From: Escherichia phage ECP2301
Strand: one strand, 5' to 3'
Length of the DNA: 64,000 bases
Sequence record: OR880646.1
The translations under genes and the position numbers were made by a program. The stretch's first letter is position 1; every line of letters starts with the position of its first letter. A model generated the notes under the pieces. That model did not search any database, had not been told where the DNA came from, and saw only the letters and a list, made by a program, of their open reading frames with translations. Below are positions 47,896 to 55,409 of this stretch, piece after piece.

Positions 47896-49011
47896 ATGGA
47901 AAAATTTATGGCAGAGTTTGGACAAGGATATGTCCAAACGCCATTTTTATCGGAAAGTAATTCAGTAAGATATAAAATAAGTATAGCGGGTTCTTGCCCG
48001 CTTTCTACGGCAGGACCATACGTTAAATTTCAAGATAATCCTGTTGGAAGTCAAACATTTAGCGCAGGTCTTCATCTAAGAGTTTTTGACCCTTCCACCG
48101 GAGCATTAGTTGATAGTAAGTCATATGCTTTTTCTACTTCAAATGATACTACATCGGCTGCTTTTGTTAGTTTCATGAATTCTTTGACGAATAACAGACT
48201 TGTTGCTATATTAACTAGCGGAAAGGTTAATTTTCCTCCTGAAGTAGTATCTTGGCTAAGAGCTGCAGGAACGTCTGCTTTTCCATCTGATTCTTTATTG
48301 TCAAGATTTGACGTATCATATGCTGCTTTTTACACTTCTTCTAAAAGAGCTATTGCACTGGAGCATGTTAAACTAAGTAATAGAAAAAGCACAGATGATT
48401 ATCAAACTATTTTAGATGTTGTATTTGACAGTTTAGAAGACGTTGGAGCTACCGGGTTTCCAAGAAGAACGTATGAAAGCGTTGAGCAATTTATGTCGGC
48501 AGTTGGTGGAACTAATAACGAAATTGCACGTCTACCAACTTCAGCTGCTATAAGTAAATTATCTGACTATAATTTAATCCCTGGTGATGTTCTTTATCTT
48601 AAAGCACAGTTATATGCCGATGCCGATTTACTTGCGCTTGGAACTACAAATATATCTATCCGTTTTTATAATGCATCGAATGGATATATTTCCTCGACAC
48701 AAGCTGAGTTTACCGGGCAAGCTGGGTCTTGGGAATTAAAGGAAGATTATGTGGTTGTTCCAGAAAACGCTGTCGGATTTACGATATATGCACAAAGAAC
48801 AGCACAAGCTGGTCAAGGTGGCATGAGAAATTTAAGCTTTTCTGAAGTGTCAAGAAATGGAGGTATTTCGAAACCTGCTGAATTTGGCGTCAACGGCATT
48901 CGTGTTAATTATATCTGTGAATCTGCTTCACCTCCGGATATAATGGTACTTCCTACACAAGCATCGTCTAAAACTGGTAAAGTGTTTGGGCAAGAATTTA
49001 GAGAAGTATAA
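47896..49011 (+). CDS. 35: Long tail fibre hinge protein gp35
   Basis: 371 aa; position. Confidence 0.85.
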   Translation: MEKFMAEFGQGYVQTPFLSESNSVRYKISIAGSCPLSTAGPYVKFQDNPVGSQTFSAGLHLRVFDPSTGALVDSKSYAFSTSNDTTSAAFVSFMNSLTNNRLVAILTSGKVNFPPEVVSWLRAAGTSAFPSDSLLSRFDVSYAAFYTSSKRAIALEHVKLSNRKSTDDYQTILDVVFDSLEDVGATGFPRRTYESVEQFMSAVGGTNNEIARLPTSAAISKLSDYNLIPGDVLYLKAQLYADADLLALGTTNISIRFYNASNGYISSTQAEFTGQAGSWELKEDYVVVPENAVGFTIYAQRTAQAGQGGMRNLSFSEVSRNGGISKPAEFGVNGIRVNYICESASPPDIMVLPTQASSKTGKVFGQEFREV

Positions 49012-49014
49012 ATT

Positions 49015-49042
49015 GAGGGAGCCTTCGGGTTCCCTTTTTCTT
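49015..49042 (+). terminator. Intrinsic terminator after gene 35
   Basis: gggagcc-UUCG-ggttccc hairpin followed by TTTTTC. Confidence 0.7.
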
Positions 49043-49050
49043 TATAAATA
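49043..49050 (+). promoter_or_regulatory. Late promoter for gene 36
   Basis: TATAAATA about 25 nt upstream of gene 36 start. Confidence 0.75.
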
Positions 49051-49073
49051 CTATTAAAATAAAGGGGCATACA

Positions 49074-49733
49074 ATGGCTGATTTAAAAGTAGGTTCAACA
49101 ACTGGAGGCTCTGTCATTTGGCATCAAGGAAATTTTCCATTGAATCCAGCCGGTGACGATGTACTCTATAAATCATTTAAAATATATTCAGAATATAATA
49201 AACCACAAGCTGTTGATAACGATTTCGTTTCTAAAGCTAATGGTGGTACATATTTAAATAAAGTAATTTTTAATAAAGGAATGACTGTTCCTGGCGCAGG
49301 ATCAGGTGACAATGGTATTTTTGCTGGTCCTGGCGATAATGCCACGTATGATACTACAAATATGGATATTGTTTCGTGGTATGGTATTGGTTTTAAATCA
49401 TCGCAAGGTTCAGCAGCCAGAACTGTGGTAATTAATACACGTAATGGTGATATTAGTACAAAAGGTGTTGTGTCGGCAGCAGGTCAAGTAAGAAGTGATG
49501 CAGCTGCTCCTATAGCAGCGAATGACCTTACTAGAAAGGACTATGTTGATGGAGCAATAAATACTGTTACGGCAAATGCGGATTCTAGAGTTTTCCGTAA
49601 AGGCGACACTATGACTGGAAACTTAACCGCACCAAATTTTTTCTCGCAGAATCCTGCGTCTCAACCTTCACATGTTCCACGATTTGACCAAATCGTAATT
49701 AAGGATTCTGTTCAAGATTTCGGCTATTATTAA
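49074..49733 (+). CDS. 36: Long tail fibre distal connector gp36
   Basis: 219 aa; position. Confidence 0.85.
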   Translation: MADLKVGSTTGGSVIWHQGNFPLNPAGDDVLYKSFKIYSEYNKPQAVDNDFVSKANGGTYLNKVIFNKGMTVPGAGSGDNGIFAGPGDNATYDTTNMDIVSWYGIGFKSSQGSAARTVVINTRNGDISTKGVVSAAGQVRSDAAAPIAANDLTRKDYVDGAINTVTANADSRVFRKGDTMTGNLTAPNFFSQNPASQPSHVPRFDQIVIKDSVQDFGYY

Positions 49734-49741
49734 GAGGACTT

Positions 49742-52700
49742 ATGGCTACTTTAAAACAAATACAATTTAAAAGAAGCAAAACCGCAGGTGCACGTCCTGC
49801 TGCTTCAGTATTAGCCGAAGGTGAATTGGCTATAAACTTAAAAGATAGAACAATTTTTACTAAAGATGATTCAGGAAATATCATTGATTTAAGCATTTCC
49901 GCTGGCGGTAATATCAGTGGAAATATCACACAAACTGGAGATTATTTACAGAACGGTACATATAATCTCAATGGAAATCAGTTTGTTTATGCAGGAAAAT
50001 ATATTGAATTTTTACCTAAAACAGCTGGTAATGGTGCATGGGCAAATCAACACCTAAATAAAGCTCCTATCTTTACAGATTTGAGCTCAACTACTTCCGT
50101 TTCAGAATATCATCCGCTGATTAAACAACGCTATAAAGATGGAACTTTTTCTGTTGGTACGTTAGTAAACGAAGGAAGTTTTAAAATTCATTATATCAAT
50201 GAATCGGGAACTTCAAAATACTGGACATTTCGTAGAGATGGTGGATTTGTTGTTGATACAGGAAGTTTGACAGTAACAGATGGAAATATTTCTGCTTCTG
50301 GTAATATTAATTCGGCTACTGGGGTAGTTTCTGCTCCGCAAATCAATACAAAGACTATAGTATTTGACACAAAAGCATTTGGACAATACGATTCACAATC
50401 ATTAGTTCAATATGTTTATCCTGGAACAGGTGAAACAAACGGAATCAATTACCTTCGCAAATTCCGTGCTAAATCTGGCGGTACAATTTATCATGAATTG
50501 GCTTCTGCACAAACCGGAAAAAGTGATGAACTTTCTTGGTGGACTGGTAATACAGCGGTTAATAAACAAATGGGCCTTCGCAATGATGGTTCTTTAGTAT
50601 TACGACGTTCACTTGCAATTGGTACAATTACAACAGATGAAAACATCAATAACTACGGTTCTACTGGAGCAATGGGTGAATGTTATATAGTTATTGGTGA
50701 TGCATCAACAGGTTTATCATACAAAAAAACTGGGGTATATGACTTAGTTGCTAGTGGTCTTTCTGTAGCATCTATTACTCCTGATAGTTTCCGTAGTACG
50801 CGCAAAGCGATTTTTGGACGATCAGAAGACCAAGGTGGTACGTGGCTTCTTCCTGGCCAGAACGCAGCTCTTCTTTCAGTTCGTACTGAAGTTGACCAAA
50901 ATAATAACGGAGATGGTCAGACACATATTGGCTATAATAGTAATGGTAAATTTTATCATTATTTTAGAGGCAGAGGAAGAATGGCCATTGGAATGGCCGA
51001 AGGACTTATTGTTGAACCAGGAATTTTAGATATTAAAACTAGTTCAAATACATTAAGTCTGCGTGCTGATGGTACCGTCGCTTCTGTTCAAACATTAAAG
51101 CTTAATAACGGATTATATTTTAATAGTGATGGAACTAATGCTTCTCTAATTTTTAAAGCAGCTTCAGGTATTGATGGTACTAAACAAATACTTTGGGAAG
51201 GTGGTACTCGTGCTGGACAGAATAAGAGTTATGTAACTGCTAAAGCTTGGGGAAATTCATTTAATTCATCTGGCGATCGTAATCGTGAGACGGTTTTTGA
51301 AGTATCAGATGGACAAGGATATTATTTTTATGCTCAACGTGTAGCTCCTGCACCAGGTTCAACAACTGGCGCAGTTCAATTTAGAGTTGCTGGAGCATTA
51401 TTAACTTCTGGCGGTATTACATCATCTGGTTCTATTGTTACTGAATCTAGTTTAGTTGCTAATAATGGATTATCTGTAAACGGACAAGCTAAATTTGGCG
51501 GAACTGCTGATGCATTAAGAATTTGGAATGCTGAATATGGTGCCATTTTCCGTCGCTCAGAAGCAGCATTACATATTATCCCGACTCCTAAAGATGCTGG
51601 TGAAAGTGGTGGAATAAGTAATCTCCGCCCGCTAAGTATTAGTCTTAATAATGGTATGGTACAAATGCGCCATTCTGTTACGTTAGGAGATGATGGCGCT
51701 GGCGGTAATATGATTACTGTGGACAATGACAGTAAGCGTGTTGTATTAGCAAGTCATAGTCGTATTGCTCCTAATTTCAGAATGCAATTAGGACAAAATG
51801 CTTATATAGATATTGAGGCTTCTGATGGAGTTCGCCCAGCAGGTTGTGGTTCATTTGCATCTCAGAATGACGTAAATGTCAGAGCTCCAATTTATATGAA
51901 TATAGAGCGTACTGCTGCTTCTGAATATATTCCCATTGTTAAACAACGGTATGTAAATGGTGATAGTACTTATTCTATTGGCACATTAATTTCTCAAGGA
52001 GACTTCCGCGTTCATTATCACCAGGGCACGAGTACTACCGGTACTGATTTAAGCTGGGAATTCCGTCGCAATGGTGATTTCCGCGCGGCAGGTAAAATTA
52101 TTGCCGGTGCTGCTACTTTTGGCACTGATGGTAATATTACCGGTGGTTCCGGTAATTTTGCTAACCTAAATACGACTTTAAACCGTAAAGTTAATTCTGG
52201 ATTTATTACCTACGGTTCAACCGAAGGATGGTATAAGTTTGCAACAGTAACAATGCCACAGAGCGCAGCTACAGCAACATTTACATTGACTGGTGGTAGT
52301 GGGTTTAATGATGGATTAAATACCCAATGTTCTATAAATGAAATTGTTCTTCGTACCGGTAATAACAATCCTCCCGGATTAAATGCTGTATTATATAATC
52401 GTTCATTAAACGGATTTCGTAATATAGCTTATATTAATACACATGGGGATACATACGACATTTATATAAATGTCGGTCCTTACGCAAACCAAATGACTTG
52501 TTCTTGGAATGCGTCGGAGCAAGTTACCGTTGAAGTCGTTGGCATTAATGGAACAACTCAATCTCCTGTAGAAGAATTACCTTCTGGTTATGCTACTGGA
52601 CAAGTTGCTAATGTTCTTAATAACTTAGTTGATCGCGGTAAAGTTAAGCGTTACGAAGCTTATTCTGAAATAGCTATTAATAATCAAACTGGCATTCGTA

Positions 52701-53623
52701 TTAGAAGCAACGGCGATAAAACTGGTTCTGTTGCTACAATGCTACGAAATGATGGCGGTAGTTTTTATATTCTGTTTACAGATAAAAATGCCACCGATGG
52801 CGCAGCAACTGTTAACGGTGATTGGAATAGTAAACGTCCTTTCGCAATTAACTTAACAACCGGCGAAGTGTTAATGAATAATGGCATAGCTGTTCGCAGC
52901 GCTGCTTTATTCTACAACAGCATAAACGTCAAAGATAATGGTTCTATTAACTTTGATAAATCGGGTGCGAACCCGAGAAACATGCGTATATTCCATGCTG
53001 GTGATGGAACTCGTGGTAACCGTATTGAAATTGCTGATGAAACTAACTATATTGCTTACTTTGAAAAAACTCCAGGTGGAGCTAACCGCTTTGTAGTAAA
53101 TAATGCTACTGTAGCTGGTGTTAACCAAATGAATTCATTTGGTATTAATATCAATAACGCACTTGGTGGAAATAGTATAGCGTTTGGTGATAATGACACC
53201 GGTATTAAGCAAAATGGCGATGGATTATTAGACATATATGCGAATGGCGTACAGACTTTCCGTTTCCAAAACGGTGATTTGTACTCATACAAAAATATAA
53301 ATGCTCCAAACGTTTATATTCGTTCTGATATTCGTTTAAAATCCAACTTTAAACCTATCGAAAATGCACTCGATAAAGTTGAAAAACTTAACGGTGTCAT
53401 TTACGATAAAGCTGAATACATCGGTGGAGAGGCAATTGAAACTGAAGCGGGTATTGTGGCTCAAACACTGCAAGACGTTTTACCAGAAGCTGTCCGTGAA
53501 ACAGAAGACAGTAAGGGTAATAAAATACTCACTGTTTCTTCTCAGGCCCAGATTGCTCTTCTGGTTGAAGCTGTGAAAACACTTTCTTCTCGTGTAAAAG
53601 AACTTGAATCTAAACTTATGTAA
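49742..53623 (+). CDS. 37: Long tail fibre distal subunit gp37 with C-terminal chaperone-like domain (T2-type)
   Basis: 1293 aa; C-terminal ~110 aa (SDIRLKSNF...ELESKLM) resembles tailspike intramolecular chaperone domains; internal duplicated segments. Confidence 0.9.
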   Translation: MATLKQIQFKRSKTAGARPAASVLAEGELAINLKDRTIFTKDDSGNIIDLSISAGGNISGNITQTGDYLQNGTYNLNGNQFVYAGKYIEFLPKTAGNGAWANQHLNKAPIFTDLSSTTSVSEYHPLIKQRYKDGTFSVGTLVNEGSFKIHYINESGTSKYWTFRRDGGFVVDTGSLTVTDGNISASGNINSATGVVSAPQINTKTIVFDTKAFGQYDSQSLVQYVYPGTGETNGINYLRKFRAKSGGTIYHELASAQTGKSDELSWWTGNTAVNKQMGLRNDGSLVLRRSLAIGTITTDENINNYGSTGAMGECYIVIGDASTGLSYKKTGVYDLVASGLSVASITPDSFRSTRKAIFGRSEDQGGTWLLPGQNAALLSVRTEVDQNNNGDGQTHIGYNSNGKFYHYFRGRGRMAIGMAEGLIVEPGILDIKTSSNTLSLRADGTVASVQTLKLNNGLYFNSDGTNASLIFKAASGIDGTKQILWEGGTRAGQNKSYVTAKAWGNSFNSSGDRNRETVFEVSDGQGYYFYAQRVAPAPGSTTGAVQFRVAGALLTSGGITSSGSIVTESSLVANNGLSVNGQAKFGGTADALRIWNAEYGAIFRRSEAALHIIPTPKDAGESGGISNLRPLSISLNNGMVQMRHSVTLGDDGAGGNMITVDNDSKRVVLASHSRIAPNFRMQLGQNAYIDIEASDGVRPAGCGSFASQNDVNVRAPIYMNIERTAASEYIPIVKQRYVNGDSTYSIGTLISQGDFRVHYHQGTSTTGTDLSWEFRRNGDFRAAGKIIAGAATFGTDGNITGGSGNFANLNTTLNRKVNSGFITYGSTEGWYKFATVTMPQSAATATFTLTGGSGFNDGLNTQCSINEIVLRTGNNNPPGLNAVLYNRSLNGFRNIAYINTHGDTYDIYINVGPYANQMTCSWNASEQVTVEVVGINGTTQSPVEELPSGYATGQVANVLNNLVDRGKVKRYEAYSEIAINNQTGIRIRSNGDKTGSVATMLRNDGGSFYILFTDKNATDGAATVNGDWNSKRPFAINLTTGEVLMNNGIAVRSAALFYNSINVKDNGSINFDKSGANPRNMRIFHAGDGTRGNRIEIADETNYIAYFEKTPGGANRFVVNNATVAGVNQMNSFGININNALGGNSIAFGDNDTGIKQNGDGLLDIYANGVQTFRFQNGDLYSYKNINAPNVYIRSDIRLKSNFKPIENALDKVEKLNGVIYDKAEYIGGEAIETEAGIVAQTLQDVLPEAVRETEDSKGNKILTVSSQAQIALLVEAVKTLSSRVKELESKLM

Positions 53624-53650
53624 AAGAGGGCTTCGGCCCTCTAAGGATTT
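53623..53650 (+). terminator. Stem-loop after gene 37
   Basis: agagggc-UUCG-gccctct hairpin. Confidence 0.6.
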
Positions 53651-53653
53651 TTA

Positions 53654-54448
53654 ATGGCAATTGTAGGTGTTCCTGGCTGGATTGGTGAATCTGCCGTGAA
53701 TGAAACTGGACAACGTTGGATGGATGCTGCAATGAAAGCAGTTCGTGTTTCAGTTCCTGGTTGGATGAGCTCAATGGCCGGACAATCTAAAGAAGTATAT
53801 TACAGCATTGGTGCTAGCAATTCTTATAATAAAGACACACTAATAAATTATCTCAAATCTCAAGGTAGTACTCCTGTTGTTGTTACTATTACTGGTAACT
53901 TAGTTTCTTCATCTGCCGGGCAACCTTGCTTAGATTTTCCTAGTTCATTAACTAATGCTTATGTAACGCTTATTATAAATGGCGGTGTAACAGTATATGG
54001 TCGCGGAGGACGCGGCGCGCAAGCGGGAAACCAGGCGGGTGAAGCTGGTGGTACTGCAATTAACAATGGTATAGGTACTCGTCTACGAATCACTAACAAT
54101 GGAGCAATCGCTGGCGGCGGCGGTGGTGGTGGCGCCCAATCAACTGATAATGGATGGGGAGGTAAATATGTTTCTGGCGGTGGCGGCGGACGTCCTTTCG
54201 GAGCTGGTGGTAATAATGGAGCAAAAGCTCCGGGTGCATCAGCATCTTTAACATCTCCAGGCGCTGGCGGAAAAATGTATTCCGGCGTTGGATACTACGG
54301 TGGTGACGGTGGTAATGTTGGTGAACGAGGTAAGGATGCGGTTAGATTGAACGGCTATTCGAACTCACCTGGCGCAGCAGGTAAAGCTGTTACTGGTAAT
54401 GCTCCAACTTGGACTAAAGTTGGTACAATATATGGTGCAAGAGTATAA
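53654..54448 (+). CDS. 38: gp38 glycine-rich receptor-binding adhesin (T2-type)
   Basis: 264 aa; multiple poly-Gly motifs (GGGGGGGA, GGGGGRP) separated by variable segments. Confidence 0.85.
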   Translation: MAIVGVPGWIGESAVNETGQRWMDAAMKAVRVSVPGWMSSMAGQSKEVYYSIGASNSYNKDTLINYLKSQGSTPVVVTITGNLVSSSAGQPCLDFPSSLTNAYVTLIINGGVTVYGRGGRGAQAGNQAGEAGGTAINNGIGTRLRITNNGAIAGGGGGGGAQSTDNGWGGKYVSGGGGGRPFGAGGNNGAKAPGASASLTSPGAGGKMYSGVGYYGGDGGNVGERGKDAVRLNGYSNSPGAAGKAVTGNAPTWTKVGTIYGARV

Positions 54449-54479
54449 TTTTGAATAAATATCCTTAAAAGGAGGGTCT

Positions 54480-55136
54480 ATGGCAGCACCTAGAATATCA
54501 TTTTCGCCCTCTGATATTCTGTTTGGTGTTCTAGATCGCTTGTTCAAAGATAACGCTACCGGGAAAGTTCTTGCTTCCCGGGTAGCTGTCGTAATTCTTT
54601 TGTTTATAATGGCGATTGTTTGGTATAGGGGAGATAGTTTCTTTGAGTACTATAAGCAATCAAAGTATGAAACATACAGTGAAATTATTGAAAAGGAAAG
54701 AAATGCACGCTTTGAATCTGTCGCCCTGGAACAACTCCAGATAGTTCATATATCATCTGAGGCAGACTTTAGTGCGGTGTATTCTTTCCGCCCTAAAAAC
54801 TTAAACTATTTTGTTGATATTATAGCATATGAAGGAAAATTACCTTCAACAATAAGTGAAAAATCACTTGGAGGATATCCTGTTGATAAAACTATGGATG
54901 AATATGCAGTTCATTTAAATGGACGTCATTATTATTCCAACTCAAAATTTGCTTTTTTACCAACCAAAAAGCCTACTCCCGAAATAAATTACATGTACAG
55001 TTGTCCATATTTCAATTTGGATAATATCTATGCTGGAACAATAACCATGTACTGGTATAGAAATGATCATATAAGTAATGACCGCCTTGAATCAATATGT
55101 GCTCAGGCGGCCAGAATATTAGGAAGGGCTAAATAA
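54480..55136 (+). CDS. t: Holin T
   Basis: 218 aa; single N-terminal TM and large periplasmic domain. Confidence 0.92.
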   Translation: MAAPRISFSPSDILFGVLDRLFKDNATGKVLASRVAVVILLFIMAIVWYRGDSFFEYYKQSKYETYSEIIEKERNARFESVALEQLQIVHISSEADFSAVYSFRPKNLNYFVDIIAYEGKLPSTISEKSLGGYPVDKTMDEYAVHLNGRHYYSNSKFAFLPTKKPTPEINYMYSCPYFNLDNIYAGTITMYWYRNDHISNDRLESICAQAARILGRAK

Positions 55137-55409
55137 TTATTTGTTCGTATACATCTCTAGATATCGATATACACCCTCAAAACCCTCGTTGAATTCGTCG
55201 ATGAGGGTTTTCTTATCTTCTTGAGTTAATTCAGAAACAATTTTACGGAATGAATTCTGATTCAACTTTCTACCTTCATGCGTTACTCCAATCTCATTCA
55301 GAAATGCAATAAAATTAGCACGATTCTCAACAATATCTTCTCGTGAAAATTTAATCAAAATAGACGCAACAGTAATAATTTCACGAACTGTATCAATATT
55401 TTTATTCAT
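55137..55409 (-). CDS. asiA: AsiA anti-sigma-70 factor
   Basis: 90 aa; matches T4 AsiA as recalled. Confidence 0.93.
   Translation of the reverse strand: MNKNIDTVREIITVASILIKFSREDIVENRANFIAFLNEIGVTHEGRKLNQNSFRKIVSELTQEDKKTLIDEFNEGFEGVYRYLEMYTNK

Follow-up and report, generated by a model that had tools for sequence, protein, structure and literature searches.

Architecture and probable origin of the T2-type gp37–gp38 receptor-recognition module in Escherichia phage ECP2301

Genes and domains of the fibre tip

The distal tip of the long tail fibre of Escherichia phage ECP2301 is encoded by genes 37 and 38, which lie next to each other on the plus strand of the 64,000-nt stretch analysed here (sequence record OR880646.1; this whole stretch is called the window, and all positions refer to it). 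Open reading frame (ORF) order places gp34, gp35 and gp36 upstream of gp37, and the ORF after gene 38 matches Pfam Phage_holin_T and represents holin t. Gene 38 thus lies directly after gene 37 and before t, as expected for a T2-type gp38 gene. The backbone is that of a Tequatrovirus, and over 24 kb it is ~97% identical to several T-even phages of E. coli and Shigella. We are highly confident that the module represents the standard T2-type distal long-tail-fibre tip of Tequatrovirus, with gp38 capping the fibre, OmpC as the most likely receptor, and diversity generated by recombination and loop changes rather than by slippage at GGN codons. The two genes and the parts discussed first are:

49742–53623, plus strand: gene 37, long tail fibre distal subunit precursor, 1293 amino acids (aa); ORF, full-length match to PHROG 1699 'long tail fiber protein distal subunit' (1088 bits), exact match to WVH02246.1
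53324–53620, plus strand: C-terminal intramolecular chaperone domain (Peptidase S74) of gp37, aa 1195–1293, 99 aa, with Ser1195 and Lys1200 in an S-D-x-R-x-K motif; Pfam PF13884, C-terminus of 6F45 chain A, MYRF 7DC3
53321–53326, plus strand: predicted autocleavage site Arg1194/Ser1195 (NVYIR^SDIRLK); motif position, alignment with S16 gp37 DLNVS^SDRRIKK
53654–54448, plus strand: gene 38, T2-type monomeric receptor-binding adhesin, 264 aa; ORF, Pfam GP38 and Gp38_N, PHROG 2056 'tail fiber protein; host specificity', homology to 9V85 and 6F45_D
53654–53779, plus strand: N-terminal attachment domain of gp38, aa 1–42, with docking tryptophans W9, W22 and W37; Pfam Gp38_N 1–42, alignment with the S16 tryptophans

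In the NCBI database, the exact gp37 and gp38 sequences are the consecutive ECP2301 proteins WVH02246.1 and WVH02247.1, the latter annotated as "tail fiber/host adhesion protein"; our literature search found no paper on this phage. The feature is thus known in kind and catalogued in sequence, and it holds no new biology. T2-type architecture has been in the literature since 1986–87, structures have been solved (6F45, 9V85), and there are publications on the self-cleavage of the chaperone domain, on the polyglycine sandwich and on exchange at conserved motifs.

A first-pass annotation of this DNA gave gp37 a length of 1293 aa against 1026 aa in T4, with which the ORF and the T4 comparison agree (T2 gp37 has 1341 aa), and described a C-terminal segment of ~110 aa resembling self-cleaving chaperone domains. 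The domain is a genuine S74 domain, as Pfam and motif show, but its length counted from Ser1195 is 99 aa. The Peptidase_S74 profile ("chaperone of endosialidase", PF13884) matches gp37 residues 1195–1252 with an E value of 3.7e-15 and 56.4 bits (cut-off 22), and is covered in full (1–58 of 58) at the extreme C-terminus of the protein. In MEROPS family S74, a serine and a lysine act as the catalytic dyad. The corresponding residues of gp37 stand five positions apart in S1195-D-I-R-L-K1200 and align with both S16 and MYRF: gp37 1137–1291 is homologous to S16 gp37 (6F45_A), with SDIRLK opposite SDRRIK, and the C-terminus also matches the MYRF autoproteolytic domain 7DC3, an S74 relative. S16 gp37 removes its last 113 residues by autocleavage at DLNVS^SDRRIKK, and an equivalent site was predicted for the fPS (Yersinia T-even) phages at DVYIR^SDGRLKI (PMC7917993); the strand preceding the site in ECP2301, NVYIR^S, is the same as that of the fPS DVYIR site. 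C-terminal processing of gp37 in T2 and T6 is described, with reference to Drexler et al. 1986 for T2, in PMC3157838. Based on the S74 match, the S1195/K1200 motif aligned to the S16 site and the published S16, fPS and T2/T6 cases, we strongly infer that gp37 cleaves itself between Arg1194 and Ser1195.

Gene 38 encodes a full-length member of the T2-type adhesin family, as seen from its domains, tryptophans, fold and gene order. Pfam GP38 (PF05268) matches with an E value of 8e-73 and 245 bits (cut-off 25; profile 1–218 of 218) and Gp38_N (PF21721) with 7e-18 and 64.7 bits (cut-off 25; profile 1–40 of 40), and the protein matches the solved structures of PP01 gp38 (9V85, E 2e-55) and S16 gp38 (6F45_D, E 7e-46). 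An AlphaFold2 model built from 55 homologues has a predicted local distance difference test score of 90.2; a Foldseek search with it gave a template modelling (TM) score of 0.94 and a root-mean-square deviation of 1.0 Å against the PP01 receptor-binding domain (9V85) and a TM score of 0.78 against 6F45_D, and no other PDB fold came close to these matches. Conservation of W9 and W22 reaches at least 90%, and the three tryptophans of S16 gp38 have a role in docking into the gp37 trimer (PMC6851490). The 264-aa length and the poly-Gly motifs between variable segments, both noted in the first pass, are borne out by the ORF, Pfam and the family alignment: conserved Gly-rich motifs alternate with variable segments, and conservation, indel pattern and model fit a fold of a beta-helix plus a polyglycine-II (PGII) sandwich.

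The same design is found in S16 (6F45), in which a gp37 trimer is capped by a gp38 monomer and which shares the S74 domain, three docking tryptophans, beta-helix and PGII sandwich with ECP2301. The central Gly helix is conserved between the two gp38 proteins, and the S16 receptor is OmpC. S16 differs in that its gp38 is only about 42% identical, its pre-cleavage sequence reads DLNVS^S rather than NVYIR^S, and its chaperone domain comprises 113 aa instead of 99 aa. T2, the prototype, has the same architecture and gene order, a gp37 N-terminus and last ~140 aa that are 94–100% identical and an identical spacer hairpin; its gp37 is longer (1341 aa versus 1293 aa) and its gp38 is only 57–64% identical, with the divergence in the receptor loops. 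T2 gp38 was reportedly identified as an adhesin by Riede et al. in 1987. The receptors that T2 uses are OmpF and FadL (PMC3157838).

By analogy with these systems, gp37 would fold and trimerise with the aid of its own 99-aa S74 intramolecular-chaperone domain, which would then release itself by the predicted cut between Arg1194 and Ser1195. One gp38 monomer would cap the trimeric gp37 tip exposed in this way, docking by means of the helical domain at its N-terminus with W9, W22 and W37. The C-terminal half of gp38 is predicted to form a PGII sandwich of conserved Gly-rich motifs, from which five variable loops would project to bind the receptor.

Receptor loops and the predicted receptor

The five loops were located by mapping from PP01 gp38 (9V85), the best structural match (55% identity):

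54017–54034, plus strand: receptor loop A equivalent, aa 122–127, AQAGNQ; mapped from PP01 loop A W119–I124, indel-prone in the family alignment
54143–54172, plus strand: receptor loop B equivalent, aa 164–173, TDNGWGGKYV; mapped from PP01 loop B Q161–V170, family length 8–17
54212–54229, plus strand: receptor loop C equivalent, aa 187–192, NNGAKA; mapped from PP01 loop C
54272–54295, plus strand: receptor loop D equivalent, aa 207–214, KMYSGVGY, 2 residues longer than in PP01; mapped from PP01 loop D, variable within the 90% cluster
54341–54361, plus strand: receptor loop E equivalent, aa 230–236, VRLNGYS; mapped from PP01 loop E

PP01 binds OmpC through loops D and E, for which cross-links to OmpC loops 5 and 7 are described; loop D is linked to OmpC loop 5, and loop E is the main specificity loop that enters the cleft between OmpC loops 5 and 7. 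PP01 is specific for the O157 OmpC with a GVIN insertion, and its loops A, D and E differ in sequence from those of ECP2301 gp38. The differences in loops D and E, including the two additional residues of loop D, fit a preference for a different OmpC allele.

ECP2301 gp38 is 100% identical to gp38 of Shigella phage KRT47, 99.2% identical to that of ime09 and 98.9% identical to that of Sf22; across ESh26, CrRp10, ime09, Sf22, SA21RB and SP21535, identities are 98–99.6%. KRT47, ime09 and Sf22 carry OmpC-dependent T2-type adhesins and have the same gene order, 36-37-38-t. A requirement for OmpC is reported for Sf22 and KRT47, whose adsorption suffers from mutations in OmpC loops 5 and 7 (Tinney et al. 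2022, cited in PMC12892980). According to PMC12032242, a receptor is shared among closely related gp38 proteins, and OmpC binders form a small group. Since its gp38 is identical to that of KRT47, and KRT47 is reported to depend on OmpC, the primary receptor of ECP2301 is most likely OmpC, probably contacted at extracellular loops 5 and 7. The first-pass proposal that gp38 is the likely host-range determinant gains weight from the requirement published for KRT47 (cited in PMC12892980). A usable receptor prediction is thus obtained from sequence alone, which is of relevance for host-range prediction and for fibre engineering in phage therapy.

It is possible, though rather unlikely, that the receptor is not OmpC or not OmpC alone, and that another porin or a lipopolysaccharide (LPS) core sugar is the main determinant. 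The receptor loops of ECP2301 gp38 are unlike those of the OmpC binders PP01 (55% identity) and S16 (about 42%), loop D being 2 residues longer; PP01 loop B may touch LPS as well, some T-even phages use two receptors (PMC3157838), and the OmpC requirement of KRT47 is taken from a citing paper. Set against this, gp38 equals KRT47 gp38 residue for residue, with the OmpC requirement reported for the latter, and closely related gp38 proteins share a receptor (PMC12032242).

Recombination in gene 37 and the glycine-coding tract

By global alignment, ECP2301 gp37 is 92% identical to that of vB_Eco_EL, 67% to T2, 57% to KRT47 and 39% to T4. A tblastn search of the phage collection likewise gave vB_Eco_EL as the top gp37 match (84%). 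In a 100-nt profile, DNA identity to vB_Eco_EL amounts to 91–99% over 50342–51640 and 87–99% over 52142–53140. Two features delimit the remaining sequence:

51640–52140, plus strand: divergent internal shaft patch, about aa 634–800; 62–69% DNA identity to vB_Eco_EL, best database match gp37 of Serratia phage PhiZZ30 (92%)
53197–53203, plus strand: recombination crossover at gp37 aa about 1152–1154, with EL-type shaft upstream and KRT47/ime09-type tip, chaperone domain and gp38 downstream; informative sites and 100-nt identity profile

Informative sites flip cleanly from EL-type to KRT47-type at 53197–53203, ~42 residues ahead of the cleavage serine. The sequence is KRT47-type from the crossover through the end of gp38, and the transferred cassette thus takes in the final ~42 residues of mature gp37 together with the chaperone domain and gp38. 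Likewise, the last ~140 aa of KRT47 gp37 including the chaperone domain are 96–100% identical to ECP2301, and the 37–38 spacer is identical, whereas KRT47 gp37 overall is only about 57% identical, the ECP2301 shaft coming from a vB_Eco_EL-like lineage with a PhiZZ30-like patch. Judged by these alignments, gene 37 is a recombinant of a vB_Eco_EL-like shaft, a PhiZZ30-like patch and a KRT47-type tip. It provides a clean natural case of recombination that joins an adhesin cassette to another fibre shaft, with a precisely mapped junction. Tetart et al. 1998 and Trojet et al. 2011 have described such exchange at or near conserved motifs. We propose that the module diversifies by homologous recombination at conserved blocks together with loop substitutions and indels, and not by GGN slippage.

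We also considered an obligatory co-inheritance of the gp37 tip and the gp38 N-terminus through co-adaptation. This found no support: vB_Eco_EL carries another tip and chaperone-domain variant (71–72% DNA identity at 53242–53441) together with an identical gp38 N-terminus.

Two further observations concern the distribution of fibre parts. The same gp38 allele (98–100% aa identity) occurs in phages from Shigella, E. coli and Citrobacter rodentium, collected in the USA, France, China and South Africa, and the gp37 proteins that carry it are 57–71% identical to ECP2301 gp37 where measured (KRT47, SA21RB, SP21535); it looks like a stable, mobile adhesin allele. Separately, homology links the gp37 shaft at 51174–51682 (aa 478–647) to the trimerisation region at the C-terminus of gp34 (Pfam Gp34_trimer; PDB 4UXE, 5NXF and 9X3R; E about 1e-12), which indicates that the proximal and distal half-fibres have modules that are shared or duplicated.

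The mosaic shaft, notably the PhiZZ30-like patch at 51640–52140, might encode a lateral secondary contact with the host surface (LPS or O-antigen), for which we see only a slim chance. If it did, host range would vary with the shaft even where phages share one OmpC-specific gp38. The evidence shows an exchange of shaft segments that is independent of the adhesin, and it is neutral on a binding role of the shaft.

A different source of diversity had been suggested in the first pass, which took the GGN-rich DNA at about 54110–54195 for a slipped-strand hotspot that diversifies the adhesin. The tract is indeed GGN-rich, as its codons and its GC content (0.50 versus about 0.37 nearby) confirm, and it contains two runs, between which receptor loop B is located:

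54113–54133, plus strand: Gly run 1, aa 154–160, GGC GGC GGC GGT GGT GGT GGC (7 codons); equals central PGII helix 3 of S16 gp38
54176–54190, plus strand: Gly run 2, aa 175–179, GGC GGT GGC GGC GGA (5 codons), part of the conserved GGGGGRPFG motif

Adhesin diversity through gain and loss of glycine codons would find some support in this composition, in two perfect period-3 stretches of 11 nt, in a Gly count of run 1 that ranges from 7 to 9 across the family, and in the statement that small insertions and deletions in gp38 can alter receptor use (introduction of PMC12032242). Contingency loci usually hold six or more identical units. Here, Tandem Repeats Finder (TRF) reported no tandem repeat at 54110–54195, the two 11-nt stretches are the longest with perfect period 3, and no more than 3 identical codons follow each other in the mixed runs; neither an uninterrupted array of identical units nor polymorphism in repeat number among close relatives was found.

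Comparisons of gene 38 at three ranges of divergence agree with this result. Eight KRT47/ime09-type copies are all exactly 795 nt long and show 77 variable columns and zero indels; 5 of the 77 columns are third positions within run 1, so that the run was rewritten synonymously at unchanged length. Of the variable codons in these near-identical genes, 67 are synonymous-only and 8 involve an amino-acid change, a split that indicates strong purifying selection on gp38. Within the 90% cluster (16 members), the sole length change is a deletion at residues 6–7, outside the Gly runs, and amino-acid differences concentrate in the loops. Among 104 family representatives, the 9-residue segment with run 1 has an unchanged length in 102 and the run 2 segment in 100; the Gly count of 7–9 arises by substitution at the C-terminal edge of run 1 within this fixed-length segment. 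Gaps and insertions are zero in the Gly runs and concentrate in the loops, and the hypervariable segments span 8–17, 18–26, 9–15 and 16–24 residues. A scan of IMG/VR for gp38 returned only relatives of at most 70% identity and was left out of the close-range slippage test.

The constraint has a structural counterpart. In S16 gp38, the equivalent run 151-GGGGGGGG-158 forms central PGII helix 3 with a saturated hydrogen-bond network (PMC6851490), and T6 gp38 without glycine-rich motif (GRM) 2, 3 or 4 gave no viable phage (PMC3157838). The S16 structure and the inviable T6 GRM deletions account for the invariant run length, as the runs encode the PGII core. Our literature search for lab-selected gp38 host-range mutants with small duplications near the Gly motifs retrieved none, although a short duplication was reportedly present among early K3 or Ox2 mutants. 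The hotspot was rejected on TRF, the period-3 scan and the indels in 8 genes, 16 cluster members and 104 representatives, and we regard slippage as a very improbable source of adhesin diversity: no other part of the protein varies less in length than the Gly runs, and the indels lie in the loops. The runs are a length-constrained PGII scaffold. Selection may mask a raised mutation rate, but in nature the tract is not a source of adhesin diversity. This length invariance removes a tempting but wrong hypermutation reading.

Comparison with T4 and neighbouring features

T4 has a gp37 at the same locus position whose N-terminus and shaft are homologous to ECP2301 (96% in the first 50 aa, 46–80% over about aa 201–800). 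The likeness ends before the tip: identity is 0% over the last 150 aa, and T4 gp37 has a receptor-binding needle domain with iron-binding HxH motifs (seven at 883–998, eight in all) and no S74 domain, whereas ECP2301 gp37 has a single HxH at aa 758. The T4 gp38 chaperone (183 aa) is unrelated, with a BLASTP E value of 0.81 and no meaningful alignment. A reading in which gp38 serves assembly alone, like the T4 chaperone, and leaves receptor binding to the gp37 tip deserves hardly any credence. In its favour, 'distal long tail fiber assembly catalyst' and 'tail assembly protein' are names given to the homologous gene in several database records, and T2-type gp38 is said to act as a chaperone too before remaining on the fibre (PMC7917993). 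Against it, the name 'assembly catalyst' has been carried over from the T4 gene, gp38 lacks similarity to T4 gp38 and belongs firmly to an adhesin family with solved tip-complex structures, and gp37 lacks the T4 needle domain and HxH motifs and has a chaperone domain of its own. A T4-type tip was rejected after this direct comparison, and the T2-type assignment of the first pass, with S74 domain, adhesin family and absence of T4 features, holds.

Several points nevertheless weigh against the reading of the module as a T2-type tip with OmpC as receptor and recombination as the source of diversity. AlphaFold2 may have seen 6F45 in training, so that the agreement of the model is not fully independent. 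Cleavage, the presence of gp38 in the virion and binding to OmpC are deduced from homology or identity, and the OmpC requirement of KRT47 and Sf22 is taken from a secondary citation (PMC12892980). The gp37 shaft is unlike that of KRT47 (57% aa identity); host range also depends on LPS, on shielding by O-antigen, on the short tail fibres and on defences inside the cell, and may differ from that of KRT47. Finally, the invariant length of the Gly runs shows selection, and not necessarily a low mutation rate.

The spacer between the two genes contains one further feature:

53625–53642, plus strand: C(UUCG)G hairpin in the gp37–gp38 spacer, with AAGGA, the ribosome-binding site of gene 38, and a T-run after it; terminator-like scan, fold −13.4 kcal/mol, z −1.6

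This spacer is identical in T2, KRT47 and vB_Eco_EL and similar in T4. Such hairpins were reportedly described in T4 intercistronic regions by Tuerk et al. in 1988. A role of the hairpin in setting the gp37:gp38 ratio was considered and set aside, as T4 has a similar hairpin though its gp38 is not a stoichiometric part of the virion, and z is only −1.6. A second stable C(UUCG)G hairpin lies just past the gene 35 stop (49015–49036) and a third terminator-like hairpin at 55179–55211; in total, 11 terminator-like sites were found in 49000–55400, compared with 4.3 ± 2.4 expected.

On the minus strand within gene 37, an antisense ORF of 116 aa spans 51376–51726. Its composition is of low complexity and rich in proline and serine, and it probably arises as a side effect of the sense frame, which is rich in Gly, Ala and Ser. 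Upstream of the module, residues 58–123 of the gp35 hinge protein (47896–49011) match Pfam ILEI (interleukin-like EMT inducer, PF15711) with 33.8 bits (threshold 27) and an E value of 4.8e-8, which we take to be the published 'GG domain' common to FAM3/POMGnT1 and phage gp35.

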